Assembly: GCA_034189385.1 (NCBI GenBank) | Contig: JAXHVD010000001.1 | Coordinates: 192,001 to 256,000, forward strand | Direction of reading: 5' to 3' | Source of the DNA: Thermodesulfobacteriota bacterium | GTDB taxonomy: Bacteria > Desulfobacterota > Desulfobacteria > Desulfobacterales > C00003060 | DNA length: 64,000 nt | Part shown: in pieces, positions 18,380 through 30,140 of the stretch | Position numbering within the stretch: the stretch's first letter is position 1 | Layout of the letters: the number at the start of each line of letters is the position of its first letter | The notes under the pieces: model-generated | The model's database searches: none | What the model was told of the DNA's origin: nothing | Seen by the model: only the letters and a program-made list of their open reading frames with translations | Position numbers and translations under genes: made by a program

Positions 18380-18685
18380 ATGAACATATTGCGTGTTAAG
18401 TGTGTCAGGTGCGGTAAAGAGTGGCAAAAGGGCTCTAAGGTCTCATGGGGACCAGAGGATATCAGCTCATCCCTTTGCAATGCTTGCTTCAGAGAAGTCA
18501 TCTCACCGATCATTCGCAAGAAACAACTCAGAGAAGGCAATTTCGACTGCTTTGGTAAAGCGGGCGCCTATTGCGATCAACTTGAATGCAAGTATAGGGA
18601 GTGGTGCCTGCGCATGGAAGAGGTGGAGAAGACCCACGACGATCAAGAAAAAGGAAGTCGAGCCAGGGCAGGGGTTAGCCGTTGA
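18380..18685 (+). CDS. Cys-rich hypothetical protein
   Basis: CVRC...CNAC N-terminus plus QLREGNFDCFGKA..YCDQLECKYREWCL C-terminal module. Confidence 0.75.
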   Translation: MNILRVKCVRCGKEWQKGSKVSWGPEDISSSLCNACFREVISPIIRKKQLREGNFDCFGKAGAYCDQLECKYREWCLRMEEVEKTHDDQEKGSRARAGVSR

Positions 18686-18833: not shown

Positions 18834-20120
18834 TTACGAATGGCCCCTTTCATCAAAAACTCGCTTGCTCTTTCTTTCTGTGCGGGGAAGGGTGCCGTGG
18901 TCAACCAATTCCACCCTGCCTCGTACAAGCAGGTGTCGCCTGATGGCGTCTTCCAGTCCAGCTGCGATGGCGTCGTCCTTAGAAGAATCTGTGGCTTCGG
19001 CCCGCTCCACCCGAATCATCATGTGGTCCAGTCCGTCCCTGCGTGTCAGTCTAACCTGGTATTCACTGCCTACCTTGTCTTCCTCAGAAAGGAGATGATC
19101 GATCTGGCCTGGATAGATGTTTACTCCCCGGATGATAAACATGTCGTCTGTGCGGCCCAGTAGAGGGCCGTGCATGGGAAGTACGCTTCCACAAGAGCAT
19201 GGTTCAGGTATCAAATGGGTCAAGTCCCGCGTCCGGTATCGGATAAGGGGTGTTGCCTCCTTGCGTAGCGTGGTGACGACCATCTCACCCGTTTCCCCTG
19301 GCGGCAAAGGCTCCAATGTCTCAGGATCAATGATTTCCAGAATGTAGTAATCCGCCCAGAAATGAATCCCCTCATGCTTTTCGCACTCAAGGCCTGAGCC
19401 CGGTCCGTAAAGTTCTGTCAGCCCTGGAATGTCGAAGCTTCCTTCAACTCCGAAATACTCCTCAATCTTGTGGCGCATGGTAGTGCTGTGGCGCTCGGCG
19501 CCAAATATCACCTTCTTCAGAGCAATTTTATCTGAAAGCCCTCGGCGGTGGATCTCCTCTGCCATCAAAAGACCCATGGATGCGGTGCAGCAGAACACGG
19601 TGCTTTGCAGGTCGACCATGACCTCACAATGCATGTCTCGATTTCCAGGTCCCACTGGTACGGCCATGGCCCCAAATCGTTCGCACCCGAGTTGAAAACC
19701 CACGCCGGCCGTCCAAAGCCCGTAACCCACTGCAATCTGCACCCGGTCTTCCCTGGTCAAGCCTGCCATTTCGTAGCACCTGGCAAACATGTCGGCCCAG
19801 TTGTGGAGATCTTTCTGGGTGTAACAAAGTACCTTCCTTTTTCCCGTGGTGCCGGACGATGAGTGGATGCGCACGACCTTTTCAAGGGGTACGGAAAGAA
19901 GCGGGAAGGGATAGTCGGCCCTGAGATCCTGGGCCGTGGTAAAGGGAAGCCTTTGTAGGTCATCGTAAGTGCTTACGTCATCTGGCTGCACACCCGCCTC
20001 ATCCAACTTGTTCCTGTAAAAAGAAGACCCCCCATAGGCATGGACCACTGTCCATTTGAGCCCTTGTAGCTGATAGGCCTCCAACTCCTTCTTTGAATGA
20101 AAATCCGGCATAAAGGTCAT
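18834..20120 (-). CDS. paaK: Phenylacetate--CoA ligase family (PaaK-like aryl-acetate CoA ligase)
   Basis: RIHSSSGTTGK, YGLWTAG, PLIRYRTRD, GRTDDMFIIRGVNIYP, KSKRV. Confidence 0.85.
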   Translation of the reverse strand: MTFMPDFHSKKELEAYQLQGLKWTVVHAYGGSSFYRNKLDEAGVQPDDVSTYDDLQRLPFTTAQDLRADYPFPLLSVPLEKVVRIHSSSGTTGKRKVLCYTQKDLHNWADMFARCYEMAGLTREDRVQIAVGYGLWTAGVGFQLGCERFGAMAVPVGPGNRDMHCEVMVDLQSTVFCCTASMGLLMAEEIHRRGLSDKIALKKVIFGAERHSTTMRHKIEEYFGVEGSFDIPGLTELYGPGSGLECEKHEGIHFWADYYILEIIDPETLEPLPPGETGEMVVTTLRKEATPLIRYRTRDLTHLIPEPCSCGSVLPMHGPLLGRTDDMFIIRGVNIYPGQIDHLLSEEDKVGSEYQVRLTRRDGLDHMMIRVERAEATDSSKDDAIAAGLEDAIRRHLLVRGRVELVDHGTLPRTERKSKRVFDERGHS

Positions 20121-21817: not shown

Positions 21818-22057
21818 TCAACCGTTGTTCGTTGGAGTCAGCATGCCCCAAAGCCAACTCGGTATTGTGGGATACCTGCCCATGACCGTGTATGGGTCAA
21901 AGGGGTTTGCCAGAACCATGTAGCCACAGCCACCGCCTAAGACTGCCGTGCCGTCAGGCAGGTTGCCGGGGTCCGGGCAACCGCCGAATACGCCTGCCAT
22001 GTCCTTGTCGTCCAGTTCCTTTGCCATTTCCAGGTCTCTGATTTCGATGGTTGTCAT
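21818..22057 (-). CDS. 79-aa peptide with double-glycine-type leader (RiPP/bacteriocin-like precursor)
   Basis: AAGGAG RBS; MTTIEIRDLEMAKELDDKDMAGVFGG then a Cys/Pro/Gly-rich core. Confidence 0.75.
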   Translation of the reverse strand: MTTIEIRDLEMAKELDDKDMAGVFGGCPDPGNLPDGTAVLGGGCGYMVLANPFDPYTVMGRYPTIPSWLWGMLTPTNNG

Positions 22058-22311: not shown

Positions 22312-22342
22312 AAAAAAAGCCCCATCTCGAAAAGATGGGGCT
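22312..22342 (-). terminator. Intrinsic terminator of the ABC transporter operon
   Basis: 10-bp stem AGCCCCATCT/AGATGGGGCT followed by a U-run on the minus strand. Confidence 0.8.
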
Positions 22343-22391: not shown

Positions 22392-23543
22392 CTATTTTTT
22401 TACTAGGCGGAACTTTCCTTTTTCCACCTTGATGAGTATCACATCAGCCAAGGACAGACCGTTGTGGTCCGACGGTGACATATTGTAGACACCGCTTAAC
22501 CCCACATAGCCCTTTGTGTTTTCAATGGCGTCCCGAATAGCAGACCGATCGTCTCCGGCCTTTTTCAGGGCCTCCACCACGATATAGGCCGCATCGGCTC
22601 CATAAGAGACCATGACGCCTGGCTCCTTGTACGCCTTGGTGTACTCAGGCACAAATTGGGCTATCAGGGCCTTTTGGGGGTCAGTGTCGGCCAGTTCGTC
22701 CGCCACATAGATCTTCGTGGCGGGCATCATGACACCTTCTGCTGCTGAACCGGCGATTTCGATGAACTGATAATTGGCCTCACCATGACACTGGAAAAGG
22801 GGAACCTTGAAATCGAGCTCCTGCATGTTTTTTGCGACCATGGGACCGGCCGGCCCAATGGTCCAGCACAGGATGGCCTGAGGCTTCTTGGCCCGCAGAT
22901 TTACAAGCTGCGGTTTCATATCCACATCCTTACCCCCAAAACTTTCAATGCCCACCATATTAAGACCATATTCAGGGGCAAGCTTCTCCGCGTTTTTCAG
23001 GCCGTCTTTTCCAAACCCGCCCTGGATATACATGAAGCCGATATTCTTCAACCCATGATCACGCATATAGGTAAAGACCCGACCCATGGCGTGACTGGCA
23101 CGATAGGGTGATTTGAAGGCCCAGTGTGTAGGTGGTTTGTCTACAATGACGTCGCTTCCGCAATGCATGAAGGCCGGCACCTTGGCCGAATCAAGGTACG
23201 GCTTAATGGCCATGCCCACGCCCGTTCTTACAGGTCCGATGATGACACTCACCTTTTCTTGCTCTACCAGTCGCTTTGCCGCGAGCAATCCCTTGGTGGG
23301 GTCCCCTTCTGTATCAGCTTGAATGAAGTCAATCTTCCGACCGTTCACGCCCCCTGCCGCGTTCACCTTATCAAAGACAAACTGGCAACTGTTTTTCTGA
23401 TCGATGCCGATGTGCGCCCAGGGACCGGAAAGGGCGAACAGGCCGCCAACCTTCATGGGCTCTGCCGCCATACTCGAACTACTTATGGCAGAAAGCCCTG
23501 CAACGAAGAATAGAGCTACCAACATCCTGATCACACGATTCAT
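22392..23543 (-). CDS. ABC transporter substrate-binding protein (LivK/HAAT family)
   Basis: Signal peptide, KVGGLFALSG, NAAGGVNGRKI, DTEGDP, YVGLSGVYNMSPSDH. Confidence 0.9.
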   Translation of the reverse strand: MNRVIRMLVALFFVAGLSAISSSSMAAEPMKVGGLFALSGPWAHIGIDQKNSCQFVFDKVNAAGGVNGRKIDFIQADTEGDPTKGLLAAKRLVEQEKVSVIIGPVRTGVGMAIKPYLDSAKVPAFMHCGSDVIVDKPPTHWAFKSPYRASHAMGRVFTYMRDHGLKNIGFMYIQGGFGKDGLKNAEKLAPEYGLNMVGIESFGGKDVDMKPQLVNLRAKKPQAILCWTIGPAGPMVAKNMQELDFKVPLFQCHGEANYQFIEIAGSAAEGVMMPATKIYVADELADTDPQKALIAQFVPEYTKAYKEPGVMVSYGADAAYIVVEALKKAGDDRSAIRDAIENTKGYVGLSGVYNMSPSDHNGLSLADVILIKVEKGKFRLVKK

Positions 23544-23810: not shown

Positions 23811-24563
23811 TCAATCATCTCCCAAATAGGCGGCTATGACCCTATCATCGTTTTGGATATCGAAAGGCGTGCCTTGGGCCAGTTTCTCGCCATAATTCAG
23901 CACGACGATCTTATCAGAAACCTGCATAACAAAATTCATGTCATGCTCCACCAGCACAATGGTGATGCCTGATTCCTTCAGTTTGACGATGAGCTCCGCC
24001 ATGTCGGCTGTTTCAGAAGTGTTCAGCCCGGAGACCGGTTCATCCAGAAGGATCATCTTGGGGCGACTAATAAGGGCCCTTGCCAACTCCAATCGCTTCT
24101 GGTCCCCGTAAGGAAGGGCAGCACCCGGCTGATGCTCTCTGCCAGCCAGATTGACCCATTTGAGCATCTCCGCGGCCCTCTGCCGAACCTGCCTCTCCTC
24201 GCGCCTCACTTTCCAGGACCGGGCCAGACAGGCCACAAACCGGGCAGATGTGCACGAGTGAAACCCCACCATGACATTTTCCAGCGCTGTCATGTTGTGA
24301 AAGACCTGCAGGTTCTGAAAGGTCCGGGTGATTCCCAAGTACGCTACCTCGTGGGGTGGCATGCCAGTGATCCTTTTCCCATCGAAAAGGACCTCCCCTG
24401 AACTTCCAAGGTAAACACCGCTAATGATATTTAGAAGTGTGGTCTTTCCTGCCCCATTGGGACCGATAATGGCAGTAAGACTTGCCGGGTCTGCATGAAA
24501 AGAGACATTCATCAGGGCCATGATCCCGCCAAAGGATTTGCAAAGTTCAACCACTTCCAACAT
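23811..24563 (-). CDS. ABC transporter ATP-binding protein (LivG-like)
   Basis: GPNGAGKTT, RTFQNL, LPYGDQKRLE, LLDEP, VEHDM, AYLG. Confidence 0.93.
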   Translation of the reverse strand: MLEVVELCKSFGGIMALMNVSFHADPASLTAIIGPNGAGKTTLLNIISGVYLGSSGEVLFDGKRITGMPPHEVAYLGITRTFQNLQVFHNMTALENVMVGFHSCTSARFVACLARSWKVRREERQVRQRAAEMLKWVNLAGREHQPGAALPYGDQKRLELARALISRPKMILLDEPVSGLNTSETADMAELIVKLKESGITIVLVEHDMNFVMQVSDKIVVLNYGEKLAQGTPFDIQNDDRVIAAYLGDD

Positions 24564-24646: not shown

Positions 24647-25693
24647 TTATAGCGTGTTACCCCCGAAAGGCGACTCCAATTCCTCACCTAAGATCACGTT
24701 GGGGGATCTCTTTTTCCGGATGAGATGTAAGATGCCAGGGATAAACCCTTCCGGGAAAAAGATCATGACAACCATGAGAATGAGCCCCATGGCCACTACG
24801 TTGAACTTTTCCATAATATGAAGGAACTCCGAAAGCAGGGTCAGCATGACAGCGCCAAACAAAGAGCCCCAAACGCTACCCAACCCTCCCACAATTACCA
24901 TGATCACCACCTGGATGGAATAAACGATGTCGCAGGACTTGGGCGTGATCACGGTAATATAGTGGGCATACAGACTCCCTGCAAGGGAGGCAAACATGGC
25001 ACTGAGGACAAAGACCTTCACCTTGTATCTATGGGTGTTGATACCCAGCGTGTTGGCTGCCACCTCGCTTCCGTGGATGGCCCTGAGGGCCCTTCCCACC
25101 CGCGAGTCCACCAGGCTGAGAGAAGCCAGCAGTGCCACCAGGCTTAAGCCCCATATGAGAAAGTAGAATTTCAGGTCAGAGTCGAATCGGAGTCCACCCA
25201 CTGTCAGGTGGGGAATGCCGGCCATCCCATTGGCCCCACCTGTCACAGAATCCCACTCTACAAGGACTATTTCAAAAATGATGTTCAGGCCCAACGTGGC
25301 CATGACCAGATAGTTCCCCTTTAATCTCAAGGTGGGAATTCCGATCAAGTATGCCACAGCCCCCGTAAGCAGCATGGCCAGAAGAATGATGAACCAAGAT
25401 AGAGACCATTGAGGAAACCAGGATAGGGACCAGGGGCACAGGTCCATGTTGGTGGTGAGTACGGCCGACACATAGGCGCCCATGCCATAGAAGGCGGCGT
25501 GTCCCATGGAGATCTGCCCTGCATAGCCGACCAGAAGATTGAGCCCTACCACCACCATGGTATTAAGACCGATCACATTGAGAACGAGAAGGTAATAACT
25601 CGTCTCTATGAACAGGGGCAATATGGCAATGGCCAGGGCCAGAACCATCAGGTAGAGGAGATGGTGATGCTTCTTGAGGTCGGAAGATTCCAC
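24647..25693 (-). CDS. ABC transporter permease (LivM-like)
   Basis: GYAGQISMGHAAFYGMGAY, RLKGNYLVMATL, SRVGRALRAI. Confidence 0.92.
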   Translation of the reverse strand: MESSDLKKHHHLLYLMVLALAIAILPLFIETSYYLLVLNVIGLNTMVVVGLNLLVGYAGQISMGHAAFYGMGAYVSAVLTTNMDLCPWSLSWFPQWSLSWFIILLAMLLTGAVAYLIGIPTLRLKGNYLVMATLGLNIIFEIVLVEWDSVTGGANGMAGIPHLTVGGLRFDSDLKFYFLIWGLSLVALLASLSLVDSRVGRALRAIHGSEVAANTLGINTHRYKVKVFVLSAMFASLAGSLYAHYITVITPKSCDIVYSIQVVIMVIVGGLGSVWGSLFGAVMLTLLSEFLHIMEKFNVVAMGLILMVVMIFFPEGFIPGILHLIRKKRSPNVILGEELESPFGGNTL

Positions 25694-26577
25694 TAGATCC
25701 TTTCTGCCTCTGGCGATCCCAGAAGGCCACTAGGGCGAACAAAGAGGACCAGCAACAGGATGATGAAGGCTATGGCATTCTTATATGCTGATGAGATCAA
25801 TCCCGTGGCCAAGGATTCAATGACGCCGAGCAGCAATCCGCCCAAGATCGCGCCAGGCATGCTGCCATAACCGCCAAGCACGGCAGCGGAAAAGCCCTTC
25901 AGGCCCAACATGAATCCTACATCATAAGAAGTCGTGGTTATGGGTGCGATAATAATCCCTGCCACGGCTCCTAAGGCCCCGCTCATGGCAAAAGAGAGAA
26001 GGGTCATGCGGTTGACACAGATGCCTGACAGGGCCGCAGCCCGTTGATTGCAGGAGACAGCCCTCATGGCCTTGCCTGTGACGCTCTTTTTAAAAAAGAA
26101 GTACAAGGCGATGACAACAAACAGGGTGATCGCGAAAATCCACAGGTTTTGAGACACGATGGTTGCCTTTAGAAGATGGATCGGCTCATTTCCAGAGAAA
26201 GGGGGGAGGACAAAGGGATCTGATCCCCATATGATTAAAGCCAATCCCTTAACAGAAATGGAGGCACCAATGGTGATAAAGATCAGGACCAGGATCTGTT
26301 GGGACCTGGCTGTTCGGATGGCTGATCTCTCAAAGAGGGCACCTATCAAAGTGACTGTGGTGATGGCCAGAGGAATCGAGATGGCCAGGGGGACCCCTAT
26401 GAAGGCGTAGAAGGTGACGGTGATCATCCCTCCCAGGGTAATGAACTCGCACTGGAGCAGATTCATGATGCCGCTGGCATTGTGAACCACACCAAAGCCT
26501 ATGGCAATGAGCCCATAGATGCTCCCCGTGGTGAGACCGGAAAAGAGAAATTGTGAAAGGTTGTCCAATAGAATCAT
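25693..26577 (-). CDS. ABC transporter permease (LivH-like)
   Basis: GSIYGLIAIGF, GKAMRAVS, LKGFSAAVLGG, RPSGLLG. Confidence 0.92.
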   Translation of the reverse strand: MILLDNLSQFLFSGLTTGSIYGLIAIGFGVVHNASGIMNLLQCEFITLGGMITVTFYAFIGVPLAISIPLAITTVTLIGALFERSAIRTARSQQILVLIFITIGASISVKGLALIIWGSDPFVLPPFSGNEPIHLLKATIVSQNLWIFAITLFVVIALYFFFKKSVTGKAMRAVSCNQRAAALSGICVNRMTLLSFAMSGALGAVAGIIIAPITTTSYDVGFMLGLKGFSAAVLGGYGSMPGAILGGLLLGVIESLATGLISSAYKNAIAFIILLLVLFVRPSGLLGSPEAERI

Positions 26578-26580
26578 GGC

Positions 26581-26619
26581 AAAAAAAAGCCGCAGGTTTC
26601 AAGGAACTGACCGCGGCTT
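26581..26619 (-). terminator. Attenuator terminator immediately upstream of the permease start codon
   Basis: AAGCCGCGG...CCTGCGGCTT stem with U8 tail ending 3 nt before ATG 26577. Confidence 0.85.
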
Positions 26620-26642
26620 CACTCCGTTCATGTCTTTAAGAT

Positions 26643-26741
26643 CTAGCGCTCGCTGCGGACAGACCCCTCCTTTGTGCTCTGCCACCACCAGCACCAAGGG
26701 CTAAAAAAACCGATGAAACATATGCGGATCTGTCGCCCCAT
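26643..26741 (-). CDS. Trp-rich attenuation leader peptide (32 aa)
   Basis: MGRQIRICFIGFFSPWCWWWQSTKEGSVRSER*; lies between a promoter and an intrinsic terminator. Confidence 0.75.
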   Translation of the reverse strand: MGRQIRICFIGFFSPWCWWWQSTKEGSVRSER

Positions 26742-26751
26742 AGCGAAAAAG

Positions 26752-26780
26752 TCTTTAACAGAACGAGAGGCCTCTGTCAA
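26752..26780 (-). promoter_or_regulatory. Putative sigma70 promoter of the leader/ABC operon
   Basis: TTGACA-17nt-TAAAGA with extended TG; leader ATG 10 nt downstream, suggesting a near-leaderless mRNA. Confidence 0.6.
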
Positions 26781-26912
26781 GTTGCGAGGCCCTTATTTTG
26801 TTCCAGAAGACCCCGTCCTCTCTCCTTGTGGGAAAAGACCCATCTGTGATATATGGCTCAGAAAAAGATTATACAAGAATACGCCGATGCACTTAGCTCC
26901 TGGACTCACGTT

Positions 26913-27018
26913 TTGAACCGCATAAGCGAGCGCATTCTCCACAGGAGAGCTACCGCAGCCCCCGTAGGTTCTGCCCGTTGGCAGTGCTAGCGCGGCGCGG
27001 GCCGCGGGGAATGTTCAA
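26913..27018 (+). repeat. Palindromic dispersed element, copy B
   Basis: TTGAACCGCATAAGCGAGCGCATTCTCC...CCCCGTAGGTTCTGCCCGTTGGCAGTGCTAGCGCGG...GCGGGGAATGTTCAA. Confidence 0.85.
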
Positions 27019-27062
27019 TTCCGGACATGAACCGTTGGCAGATCGTGATAAGATTCTGGAAA

Positions 27063-27143
27063 CGTCATTCCGGCGAAGGCCGGAATCCAGTTTCTTTTCA
27101 AAGCGTTTGGCACTCTGGATGTCGGATCAAGTCCGGCATGACG
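27063..27143. repeat. REP-like palindromic repeat (GTCATTCCGG...CCGGCATGAC type)
   Basis: CGTCATTCCGGCGAAGGCCGGAATCCAG ... CTGGATGTCGGATCAAGTCCGGCATGACG nested inverted repeats. Confidence 0.75.
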
Positions 27144-27249
27144 AAAGAAATTTGAGCTCTGCAGTCTTCTGCAATTGTTTCTTTGATTGGACGAAGACGA
27201 TTGGGAACAAGACGCATAAGCATTTACAGAGAATCTCTTGGAGGCTCAT

Positions 27250-27435
27250 ATGAGAGCGCTTGACGAACAGGTTTTAAAGGTGACCAAAGAGATGGTGGCC
27301 AAGTTCATAGAGGTAGGCCGTGTCTCTCCCACCTCCTTTGACGAGACTTTCAAGAGTGTCTACAGGAGTGTGAAGGAGGCGATCCTGGGCAACAGCGAAC
27401 CCCTGCCGGAAAAGGGCGATGAAGAAGAGCCCTAG
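27250..27435 (+). CDS. Small conserved hypothetical protein
   Basis: GGAGG RBS; QVLKVTKEMVAKFIEVGRVSPTSF resembles a small family seen in sulfate reducers. Confidence 0.75.
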   Translation: MRALDEQVLKVTKEMVAKFIEVGRVSPTSFDETFKSVYRSVKEAILGNSEPLPEKGDEEEP

Positions 27436-30140
27436 TGGACGTTCGCCCAGTTTTGGCCTACCTTAATGTCCACCTTGAGCGGCACTCTGAGTTCATAGAC
27501 CCCTTCCATGAGGGAGGTGACCAGTTTTCTTGCGCTGTCGAGTTCCTCATGGGGGATCTCAAAGACCAGCTCGTCATGGACCTGTAGCAGCATCTTGGCC
27601 TTTAGCCCCTGCCGGTCCAATGCCTCGTGTATGCGTATCATGGCCACCTTGATAAGATCGGCAGCGGTGCCCTGAAGGGGCGTGTTAACGGCTGTGCGCT
27701 CTGCCGACTCCCGGGCGGTGCGGTTTGGGCTTGCAATATCGGGAAGCCACCGGTGACGACCCAGCAGCGTGGTCACCTTCTTAACCTTCCGAGCCTCCTC
27801 AATGGTCTCGGCCGTGAAGCGCTTCACCCCTTTGTACCTGTCAAAATAGTGGTCAATGTAGGTCCTTGCCATCTTGTTGCTGATCCCTAACTCGTTGGCC
27901 AGCCTGAAGGGGCCCATCCCGTAAATGATCCCGAAATTGATGACCTTGGCCTGACGGCGCATCTCCTGCGTAATCATGGAGGGAAAGAGTTGGAAGACCT
28001 CAGCCGCTGTGCGCGTGTGGATATCCTCGTCTCTTTCAAAGGCCTCGACAAGGATGGGGTCTTGAGAGTAGTGGGCTAGGAGTCGAAGTTCTATCTGGGA
28101 ATAGTCTGCAGAGAGCATGACCCAGCCTTGTCGTGGGAGGAAAGCGGCCCGAATCTTGCGACCCTCCTCTGTGCGTATAGGGATATTTTGAAGGTTGGGG
28201 TCACTGCTGCTCAGACGGCCCGTGGCTGTCACCGTCTGATTATAGGACGTGTGGATGCGATCGGTTTCTCCGTGGATCAGATCGACCAGGGCGTCGGCAT
28301 AGGTCGATTTGAGCTTTGCAAGGGAACGGTATTGGAGCACCAGGGCAGGCAATTCGTGTTCTGTTGACAGCGTGGTAAGGACCTGTACGTCCGTGGAATA
28401 ACCGGTTTTCTTTTTGGTCTTTTTCAGGACTGGGAGTTTGAGTTTTTCAAAAAGGATGTAGCCCAATTGCTGGTGGGACTGGATGTTGAATGCTTCCCCG
28501 GCTATGGCGTATATCCGGCCCTGTATCTCATCGAGCTGGCGTTCAAACTCCTTTGATAGGGTCTGCAAACGACCCTTGTCCACACGAATGCCTGACATCT
28601 CCATGTCTACCAGGACCGGTATAAGGGGAATTTCAATCTTTCGGAAAAGGTCCTCAAAGCCCCCTTCTTTCAACTTGGACGCCAGTACCTTGTAGGCCAT
28701 GAAGGTGATGTCTGCGTCTTCACAGGCATAGGGTACGGCATCTGCTATGGGGACCGCTTCAAATCCCCCCCTGTCGCCCTTCCCGCCGGTCACTTCTTCG
28801 TAAGTTATCATCTTGTGGTCCAGGTGTTCTGAGGCAATGGCCTCCAGATTATGGGCCCGAAGGGTAGGGTTAAGGAGATAGGAAGCCACCATGGTGTCAA
28901 AGATGACCCCCTTGAGGTCAATGCCGGCACGTTTTAATACGATCCAGTCGTACTTGATGTTCTGTCCCACCTTGGCCAGGTGCGGGTCTTCCAGCAAAGG
29001 CTTCAATCGGGCCAGCGTCTGCTCAGGGGCAAGCTGTCCAGTTCCCGTTGTCTCGGTGTGCCGCAGAGGGATATATGCCGCTTCATCGGGTCGGCAGGCA
29101 AAGGAGATGCCCACAATAGCCGCCTCCATGGGGTTGATGGCCGTGGTCTCAAGGTCCAGGGCAAAGGCCTTGGTCTTTCTCAGATCATGGATCAGGCCTT
29201 TGAGGGCCTTGTCGTCCACGATGGCCCGGTAGTCTTTGTTGCTCAGGTCCGCCTTGAGCGGAAAGATCTCTTGGAGCTTTCTAAACTCCAAGGTCTTAAA
29301 GAGCCTGGCCAGCTTTTCCTTGTCAGGGCCCAAGACCTTAAAGGTTGACACCTCTGCTGATAAGGGAACCTGCCTGTCGATGGCTACCAGACGTCGGCTC
29401 AACAAGGCCTGGTCCTGATACTGGGTCAGGTTTTCACGGAGTTTCTTCTTGGTGACCTTGTCCAGGTCCTGGAAAAGGGCATCCATGCTTCCAAAGGTCT
29501 TGATTAATCCAAGGGCTGTCTTTTCACCAATGCCTGGCACACCCGGAACATTGTCCGAAGTGTCACCAGCAAGGGCCATGACATCTATCCACTGAGAAGG
29601 CTCCAGGCCGAATTCCTTTCTTAGGCCTTCGTAGTCGATGGTGCGGTCTTTCATGGGATCCCAGATGCTGGTTTGAGGGGAAACCAACTGCTTGAAATCC
29701 TTGTCGCCAGTGACCATAATGACCCTGAATCCTTCTCTCTCGGCGGCCAGGGCGAGGGTTCCTATTATGTCATCAGCCTCATAGCCCTCAAGCTCCAACG
29801 CGGCAATGTTCATCCCTTCGATCACCTCTTTGATATAGGGGATCTGCTCCACAAGATCTTCCGCCATGGGCGGACGATTGGCCTTGTAGGCATGGTACAT
29901 ATCGTGACGAAAAGTGGGACCCTTGGAATCGAAGACCATGGCCACATATTCGGGATGGTGGTCGCCAAGGAGTTTCAGCAGCATGTTCGTGAAGCCGAAA
30001 GTGGCATTAGTGGGCAGGCCCTTGCTTGTGGAAAGGTGGCGCACGGCGTGGTAGGCGCGGTGGATGTAACCGCTTCCGTCAACGAGGTAAATGGCCTTTT
30101 CTGTCAACCTTGTGCTTCCTTCCTGGGTCAGACATACCAT
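27432..30140 (-). CDS. polA: DNA polymerase I
   Basis: LVDGSGYIHRAY 5'-exo, DLETT 3'-exo, TGRLSSSDPNLQNIP, DYSQIELR, QVHDEL; start may be TTG 30107. Confidence 0.98.
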   Translation of the reverse strand: MVCLTQEGSTRLTEKAIYLVDGSGYIHRAYHAVRHLSTSKGLPTNATFGFTNMLLKLLGDHHPEYVAMVFDSKGPTFRHDMYHAYKANRPPMAEDLVEQIPYIKEVIEGMNIAALELEGYEADDIIGTLALAAEREGFRVIMVTGDKDFKQLVSPQTSIWDPMKDRTIDYEGLRKEFGLEPSQWIDVMALAGDTSDNVPGVPGIGEKTALGLIKTFGSMDALFQDLDKVTKKKLRENLTQYQDQALLSRRLVAIDRQVPLSAEVSTFKVLGPDKEKLARLFKTLEFRKLQEIFPLKADLSNKDYRAIVDDKALKGLIHDLRKTKAFALDLETTAINPMEAAIVGISFACRPDEAAYIPLRHTETTGTGQLAPEQTLARLKPLLEDPHLAKVGQNIKYDWIVLKRAGIDLKGVIFDTMVASYLLNPTLRAHNLEAIASEHLDHKMITYEEVTGGKGDRGGFEAVPIADAVPYACEDADITFMAYKVLASKLKEGGFEDLFRKIEIPLIPVLVDMEMSGIRVDKGRLQTLSKEFERQLDEIQGRIYAIAGEAFNIQSHQQLGYILFEKLKLPVLKKTKKKTGYSTDVQVLTTLSTEHELPALVLQYRSLAKLKSTYADALVDLIHGETDRIHTSYNQTVTATGRLSSSDPNLQNIPIRTEEGRKIRAAFLPRQGWVMLSADYSQIELRLLAHYSQDPILVEAFERDEDIHTRTAAEVFQLFPSMITQEMRRQAKVINFGIIYGMGPFRLANELGISNKMARTYIDHYFDRYKGVKRFTAETIEEARKVKKVTTLLGRHRWLPDIASPNRTARESAERTAVNTPLQGTAADLIKVAMIRIHEALDRQGLKAKMLLQVHDELVFEIPHEELDSARKLVTSLMEGVYELRVPLKVDIKVGQNWANVH

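Follow-up and report, generated by a model that had tools for sequence, protein, structure and literature searches.

On the minus strand of the window, the 64,000-nucleotide stretch of DNA from a Thermodesulfobacteriota bacterium analysed here, a predicted promoter, a short ORF rich in Trp codons, an antiterminator arm, a predicted terminator and the ATG of a permease gene follow one another in this order (Table 1). Judged by comparison with related genomes, this leader is very probably a trpL-type ribosome-mediated transcription attenuator, and the attenuator and the importer behind it together likely serve the salvage of indole-3-acetate. The mechanism as such is already known, being textbook attenuation, and it is the target that is new. 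A sequence-only reading of the same DNA had proposed trpL-type logic for this element; all its parts were found on the minus strand at the positions it had given, and the logic holds up in that related genomes preserve the Trp codons together with their frame and spacing, and folding of the leader RNA gives the three states expected.

Table 1 Features of the leader locus, the transporter operon and the ligase gene (window positions)
Feature	Position	Strand	Remark
-35 hexamer TTGACA	26775..26780	-	part of predicted promoter; in 16/16 aligned leaders extending that far
Extended -10, TG-n-TAAAGA	26752..26760	-	predicted; TG-n-TA in 17/17 leaders with upstream DNA
Leader ORF, 32 codons, no Shine-Dalgarno	26643..26741	-	predicted ORF; start about 4 nt past predicted transcription start
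Trp codons 16, 18, 19, 20 (sensor); also predicted 5' arm of 1:2 protector hairpin	26682..26696	-
Segment 2, antiterminator 5' arm	26652..26662, core 26662-26655	-
Segment 3, common to antiterminator and terminator	26607..26620	-
Predicted intrinsic terminator (3:4 hairpin)	26581..26620	-	-14.0 kcal/mol, U8 tail
LivH-like permease	25693..26577	-	143.5 bits, below LivH equivalog cut-off of 379
LivM-like permease	24647..25693	-	151.1 bits, cut-off 366
LivG-like ATPase, sole ATPase of operon	23811..24563	-
Solute-binding protein	22392..23543	-	nearest solved relatives bind aromatic acids
Hairpin and U-tract, likely transporter operon end	22312..22342	-	read from sequence
PaaK-like arylacetate-CoA ligase, Trp-linked clade	18834..20120	-	promoter-like TTGACA at 20192-20187

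The leader in the window and in its genus

The -10 hexamer TAAAGA (26757-26752) is separated from TTGACA by a 17-nt spacer ending in TG-T. A simple consensus scanner listed neither this promoter, whose -10 does not end in T, nor the terminator, whose hairpin loop exceeds 8 nt. The leader ORF extends from an ATG at 26741 to a stop at 26645-26643 and appears near-leaderless relative to a transcription start that is itself predicted from the promoter. The four Trp codons within five positions pointed out in the sequence-only reading are present, compared with a Trp share of 1.2% among the residues of long ORFs, and the gap between the last Trp codon and the segment-2 arm, put there at about 19 nt, measures exactly 19 nt. 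The GC-rich stem of the terminator (26620-26587) runs into a U8 stretch (26588-26581) that ends 3 nt before the permease ATG at 26577. This ATG (window 26577-26590) has no Shine-Dalgarno sequence, the place of which is occupied by the U-tract of the terminator, and the same holds for genome G013. Between polA and the promoter lies a palindromic repeat-like element (27060-27142), and a similar one is found near 38290 of contig C17 in the genome of the window (G000).

Apart from G000, 36 genomes of the genus were searched; a first DNA query detected the leader in 16 of them and a second one in 19. Two of these matches were removed, leaving 18 of 37 genomes with G000 included. One of the two, in G005, is a Leu leader in front of a leuA-like gene (L244:1360-1520) with the same hairpin plan and was rejected as a Trp element; a further Leu-rich leader is located at G000:C56:72092 (-). 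The other, in G024, was kept out since its terminator is present but its leader is rearranged: at L077:1-310 and L243, the same promoter and terminator enclose a longer leader without a Trp run, which precedes TRAP genes and has no Rfam match. Beyond the family but within the order, BLAST with the leader gave no match in any of 24 genomes.

At least two Trp codons are retained in 17 of the 18 leaders and all four in 11, the 19-nt spacing to segment 2 is kept in 14, and the leader stop is invariably situated 17 or 23 nt past the start of segment 2 (18/18). Among the 17 genomes with upstream DNA, the Trp frame is free of stops in 15, the other two frames only in 3 and 6. In 14 leaders, a start codon lies no more than 7 nt into the predicted transcript, every time in the Trp frame, and start distances and N-terminal lengths vary solely by multiples of three. 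Since the 12 codons upstream of the Trp run share 36% identity between genomes, this poorly conserved but open N-terminal half indicates that the reading frame is kept independently of RNA pairing. Exceptions are G012, with an early stop followed by a later in-frame start, and G011, in which start and frame are gone; the latter locus (L229) resembles a natural knockout that lost start and Trp codons and retained hairpin arms, TRAP genes and ligase. The search for conserved Trp-rich uORFs before orthologous permeases, suggested together with the sequence-only reading, thus found codons, frame and spacing all conserved. An additional response to Phe, tentatively raised in the same reading, is not borne out, as three Phe codons occur in just one of 16 intact leaders and none at all in eight.

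Usually located downstream of polA, the leader precedes a Liv-type ABC system in eight of the 18 genomes (first gene livH in three, livG in five), TRAP genes in nine and, in G045, a ligase remnant alone. The Liv-type setting originally described therefore stands for the window, but is not special to the element. A PaaK-like ligase gene comes directly next in nine of 16 wide genus loci and additionally in G050.

Folding of the leader RNA and comparison with known attenuators

To mimic the ribosome, the A-site codon plus 12 nt were hidden from folding as its assumed footprint. With a ribosome on any of the Trp codons, the nascent RNA is predicted to form the 2:3 helix (P 0.94-1.0) until its 3' end passes 26590, while the terminator forms once the ribosome has reached the stop and also when there is no ribosome (P 0.99-1.0), in the latter case accompanied by the 1:2 hairpin (-26.1 kcal/mol in G000). 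All three states that the folding of alternative structures was expected to yield were hence obtained. On the full-length RNA, the terminator is favoured at equilibrium even with a ribosome stalled at codons 18-20 (P 0.98-0.99), which implies that read-through needs co-transcriptional kinetics, that is, the order of synthesis. A marker pair of the 2:3 helix dominates the nascent fold in 15 of the 18 leaders and not in three; equilibrium folding from stall site to U-tract gives an antiterminator above P 0.9 in only six of 18. Only G000 has a U-U mismatch in its antiterminator; 15 of 17 relatives make a standard pair at that column.

Within the genus, 97.9% of the cells of the 2:3 helix, 96.9% of 3:4 and 88.7% of 1:2 can pair, far above slid controls, and none of these helices exceeded shuffles for covariation in the genus alone. 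When six leaders of family f69 were added, 98.4% of 2:3 and 96.3% of 3:4 cells paired, two-sided changes appeared, and a linked change across segments 2, 3 and 4 between clades was reached in 0 of 500 shuffles. By sequence comparison, these two-sided changes represent essentially one event between two clades and not many independent ones.

Tandem cognate codons, an independent frame, mutually exclusive hairpins (predicted), a 1:2 protector and coverage at stall and stop (with the footprint assumed) are the features of a trpL-type leader that we found. Leaders of E. coli (RF00513), Corynebacterium and Streptomyces likewise have a short ORF in which Trp codons stand in tandem, followed by an intrinsic terminator before the first gene, and share the 1:2, 2:3 and 3:4 helices predicted here; the occurrence of trpL attenuators in the latter two genera is described in PMC1262725, and RF00513 is listed as the Rfam Trp_leader in PMC3766115. 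Unlike E. coli trpL, the Desulfobacterota leaders are without Rfam match and, in this genus, consist of a near-leaderless ORF of 30-34 codons with four Trp codons; they also control uptake genes and, in relatives, IOR and CoA ligase besides synthesis genes. The Trp_leader model itself remained without a match in window 26300-27500 (E<=1) and, at gathering score, in eight related loci. Nor did Rfam covariance models of T-boxes or ligand riboswitches match in this part of the window or in the same eight loci. A TnaC-type stalling peptide is characterised by a single critical Trp, a terminal Pro, a conserved peptide and Rho-dependent termination; the tandem Trp codons, variable N-terminus and intrinsic terminator of the leader do not fit this type.

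The work of Lopatovskaya et al. 2010, cited in PMC4833913 as a broad survey of attenuators, may include leaders of Deltaproteobacteria. According to PMC3766115, amino-acid attenuators are mostly gammaproteobacterial with biosynthetic targets, and the account in PMC2965389 knows few ABC transporters under attenuation. Our full-text literature searches, which covered the main texts of papers available without subscription, returned no description of a Trp attenuator on such genes.

Transporter, ligase and related leaders in the phylum

The four transporter proteins of the window all score below the NCBIfam cut-offs for branched-chain LivHMGF and the operon has no second ATPase LivF. A branched-chain identity is thus not supported, and the system is probably neither a branched-chain nor a plain Trp importer. 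Further Liv operons on contigs C7 and C17 of G000 are without ATPase and G000:C21:32344-37420 mixes ATPases with ligase-like genes; ATPases may be shared between the Liv operons of this genome. The structural model of the binding protein (pLDDT 93.6) ranks highest with aromatic-acid binders of R. palustris (Z 44-45.5, rmsd 1.9-2.2, about 349 aligned residues; LivJ reaches Z 43.4), a lead of about 2 Z units for a predicted model at 26-28% identity. These LIV-fold proteins (PDB 3TX6, 4F8J, 4DQD, 3SG0) are its best matches in sequence as well as structure, but the ligands listed for them are coumarate, caffeate and phenylpyruvate, none of which is an indole acid. The TRAP binding protein linked to the leader in relatives is closest to D. 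alaskensis Dde_0634 (PDB 4NAP, 4PGN, 4PGP) and to Desal_3247 (4N6D), with E-values of 5e-103 and 5e-122 and Z 44.4 and 42.9; these entries reportedly hold D-Trp, indolepyruvate and indoleacetate. In contrast to these TRAP proteins, the window carries a Liv-type ABC system. These results support the import of Trp or an aromatic precursor put forward in the sequence-only reading and narrow the substrate to an indole acid, which gene neighbourhood and ligase clade suggest to be most likely indole-3-acetate.

The ligase of the window reaches 411.9 bits compared to a PaaK equivalog cut-off of 646.3 and falls into a separate clade, so that PaaK identity was rejected. This Trp-linked clade (support 100/100, 20 rows) stands apart from the paralogue behind a Phe leader (G000:C17:38636-39937) and carries the pocket motif Trp-Thr-Ala where PaaK has Phe-Thr-Gly. 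The tree comprises the 25 proteins that passed a filter; two paralogues from G000 did not pass it, nor did the ligases of 12 of 32 loci, among them all four with TRAP and IOR genes. Orthologues with at least 75% identity are encoded in 16 of the 18 leader genomes versus two of the 19 others, and IorA in 15 of 18 and also in 11 of 19; G045 (98% complete) yielded neither by these queries. In G000, the ligase gene is located 2.3 kb beyond the terminator of the transporter operon behind its own promoter-like site, and G013 is split similarly. As read from this layout, the transporter alone is attenuated in G000 and the ligase lies outside the attenuated operon. Elsewhere, G000 encodes a full trpE-to-trpA cluster, trpB2 and IorAB (G000:C56:136841-139397), the latter without a visible leader. 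Two small ORFs accompany these genes: a conserved Cys-rich one at 18380-18685 (+) without Pfam match, found opposite the ligase in six genus loci, and one of 79 codons at 21818-22057 (-) with a good ribosome-binding site, the N-terminus of which ends in a double-glycine-like motif and which could encode a peptide precursor.

Across the phylum, the binding-protein subfamily of the window occurs in 44 of 301 genomes; in 20 of 20 fetched loci it adjoins the Trp-linked ligase clade, and in ten of these iorA or iorB. A homologous Trp leader directly precedes iorA in all six genomes of family f69, and the order leader-iorAB-livHMG-ligase-livK is realised in eight genomes of families f69, f65 and f56, with trpB2 closing one of these operons. 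A covariance model built from the leader matched 65 of 150 phylum genomes, a number with rough E-values that includes weak matches. The best 29 non-self loci precede trpE (11), trpD (4), trpB2 (2), iorA (7, of which three were training sequences of the model) and an aminotransferase gene (1); two more have no family match at threshold and two end at a contig edge. By these matches, the window leader belongs to a phylum-wide family of putative Trp attenuators without Rfam match. Directly before TRAP binding-protein genes outside the genus, none of 28 parsed loci (of 30) has a Trp leader with terminator, and a wider scan beyond the genus revealed one such leader, L221. At L157, L167, L171, L176, L177, L278 and L282, the same transporters follow palindromic TGTATAC-type promoter sites and no leader was seen; such loci outside the leader families are likely under transcription-factor control instead.

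Other amino acids have leaders of their own. When the whole of G000 was scanned for short ORFs that contain three close Trp codons and lie ahead of a U-tract, 18 candidates emerged. Just three of them have a strong hairpin directly at the U-tract, and these precede the window transporter, trpE and a DAHP synthase-like gene, more than chance would lead one to expect; a general leader scan was too strict and missed known cases. The trpE leader (G000:C34:168213-168330, +), which matches the covariance model, shows a tandem run of four Trp codons as well as two terminator-like hairpins, and the third Trp-rich leader (G000:C56:43061-42890, -) has a strong terminator. A second DAHP synthase-like gene follows a Tyr-rich leader with terminator (G000:C23:90970-91170, +), and two hairpins and a Phe-rich leader (G000:C17:38034-38230, +) precede ligase-ACT-livK-livH-livM. 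Besides G000, nine of 20 other genus genomes have a leader rich in Phe/Tyr codons at this paralogous ligase/ACT/Liv operon, which would be the expected counterpart for phenylacetate. Terminators were also noticed before trpB2 (G000:C3:68700-68480, -) and another Liv operon (G000:C7:68750-68560, -), with leader ORFs that are unclear or weak.

Proposed salvage of indole-3-acetate and competing explanations

But, why should a Trp sensor of this kind control a transporter? Given the attenuator, a role in indole-3-acetate salvage is quite likely in view of the genes surrounding it. The ribosome would start within a few nucleotides of the transcript's 5' end and stall at codons 16-20 when charged tRNA-Trp is low. 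Segment 3 would then be taken up by segment 2 ahead of the synthesis of segment 4, leaving RNA polymerase to continue into livH-livM-livG-livK. With plentiful Trp, the ribosome would reach the stop and cover segment 2, and the terminator would form. The imported acid would be activated by the AMP-forming ligase, IorAB would use reduced ferredoxin and CO2 to carboxylate the acyl-CoA, and the resulting indolepyruvate would be transaminated to Trp. Induction by Trp shortage fits synthesis and not disposal, and an AMP-forming ligase favours acyl-CoA synthesis. Work on Methanococcus maripaludis reportedly established an aryl-acid route to aromatic amino acids. IOR has been proposed to run in reverse in methanogens and may be biosynthetic where it occurs with an AMP-forming arylacetate-CoA ligase, as discussed in PMC13285125; in the methanogen route and the Bacteroides IOR and ligase set treated there, transporter, ligase and IorAB likewise constitute one module. 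What differs in Desulfobacterota is that a Trp sensor goes with one dedicated ligase clade and a Phe/Tyr sensor with its paralogue, so that the regulation itself speaks for synthesis as the direction and for branches specific to single amino acids.

Among the competing explanations, the one that keeps the attenuator but lets the transporter import Trp, indolepyruvate or indole, with the ligase link incidental in G000, carries most weight, yet we regard it as unlikely. It would account for the transporter standing alone behind the leader in G000 and G013 and for trpB2 at the end of some operons, and crystals of Dde_0634 reportedly contained not only indoleacetate but also D-Trp and indolepyruvate. 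Trp and indolepyruvate, however, need no CoA activation, and the ligase clade adjoins the binding-protein subfamily in every fetched locus and accompanies the leader in nearly all genomes of the genus that have it. That the module is instead a broad importer of phenylacetate, hydroxyphenylacetate and indoleacetate sensing Trp and Phe is barely probable: the three Phe codons of the window leader would suit it, as would the acceptance of all three arylpyruvates by IOR enzymes (PMC13285125), but these codons are unconserved in the genus and a separate ligase/Liv operon has its own Phe/Tyr leader with a ligase of another clade.

Equally hard to credit is a catabolic, substrate-induced module for indole-3-acetate degradation or Trp disposal, in which the leader would answer high Trp in the manner of TnaC. 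In five of 40 TRAP loci, genes for hydantoinase A/B and an enzyme of the xanthine dehydrogenase family accompany the Trp-linked ligase clade, a set which looks catabolic and is familiar from anaerobic indoleacetate degradation. Such degradation opens with uptake and CoA ligation, and sulfate reducers have predicted iaa operons (PMC8360864). The iaa operon of Aromatoleum, with binding protein IaaM and indoleacetate-CoA ligase IaaB (PMC8360864), is similar by description in that uptake is followed by CoA ligation of indoleacetate, but it is catabolic and controlled by transcription factors. Against a catabolic role of the module, our scan found no Trp leader with terminator in the hydantoinase/hydroxylase loci, a query with the molybdo-subunit gave no match in G000 at E<1e-40, and tandem Trp codons, an intrinsic terminator and membership in a leader family that also precedes trpE, trpD and trpB2 argue for induction by starvation. 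Only marginally better stands the notion of a real terminator outside ribosomal control, be it constitutive damping or a leader for a protein or ligand, with the Trp codons as by-product of RNA pairing, which we consider very improbable. The TGG run indeed doubles as 5' arm of the 1:2 hairpin, the leader has no Shine-Dalgarno sequence and G011 retains the arms despite its broken ORF, but the divergent N-terminal half keeps an in-frame start, no stops and lengths varying by three, Rfam gave no riboswitch or T-box match, and sister leaders with Phe, Tyr or Leu runs precede matching pathways.

Following this argumentation, we lean, somewhat more cautiously than for this locus alone, towards an amino-acid-specific salvage in Desulfobacterota. 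Imported indole-3-acetate (auxin) would receive its CoA from a dedicated ligase clade and be turned into Trp by reductive carboxylation, under phylum-wide, uncurated ribosome-sensing attenuators (near-leaderless uORFs in this genus), while unrelated ABC and TRAP importers would swap and sensor and ligase stay fixed. To this picture, the locus would add the exchange of transporters under a fixed sensor, a near-leaderless ORF and a module that is split in G000. Classical leader-peptide attenuation with several amino-acid specificities would extend to a phylum without Rfam match. The debate on a synthetic or degradative role of bacterial IOR towards aromatic amino acids still relies on indirect evidence, as in the discussion of PMC13285125, and a Trp-starvation sensor on the whole module would be a direct test of the direction. 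If true, the substrates of mis-annotated 'branched-chain' and TRAP transporters could be read from the codons of their leaders, and a substrate and a direction would be assigned to widely mis-annotated Liv-type and TRAP transporters, to 'phenylacetate-CoA ligase' and to IorAB in sulfate reducers and syntrophs. The proposal thus points towards cross-feeding of indole-3-acetate in anoxic communities.
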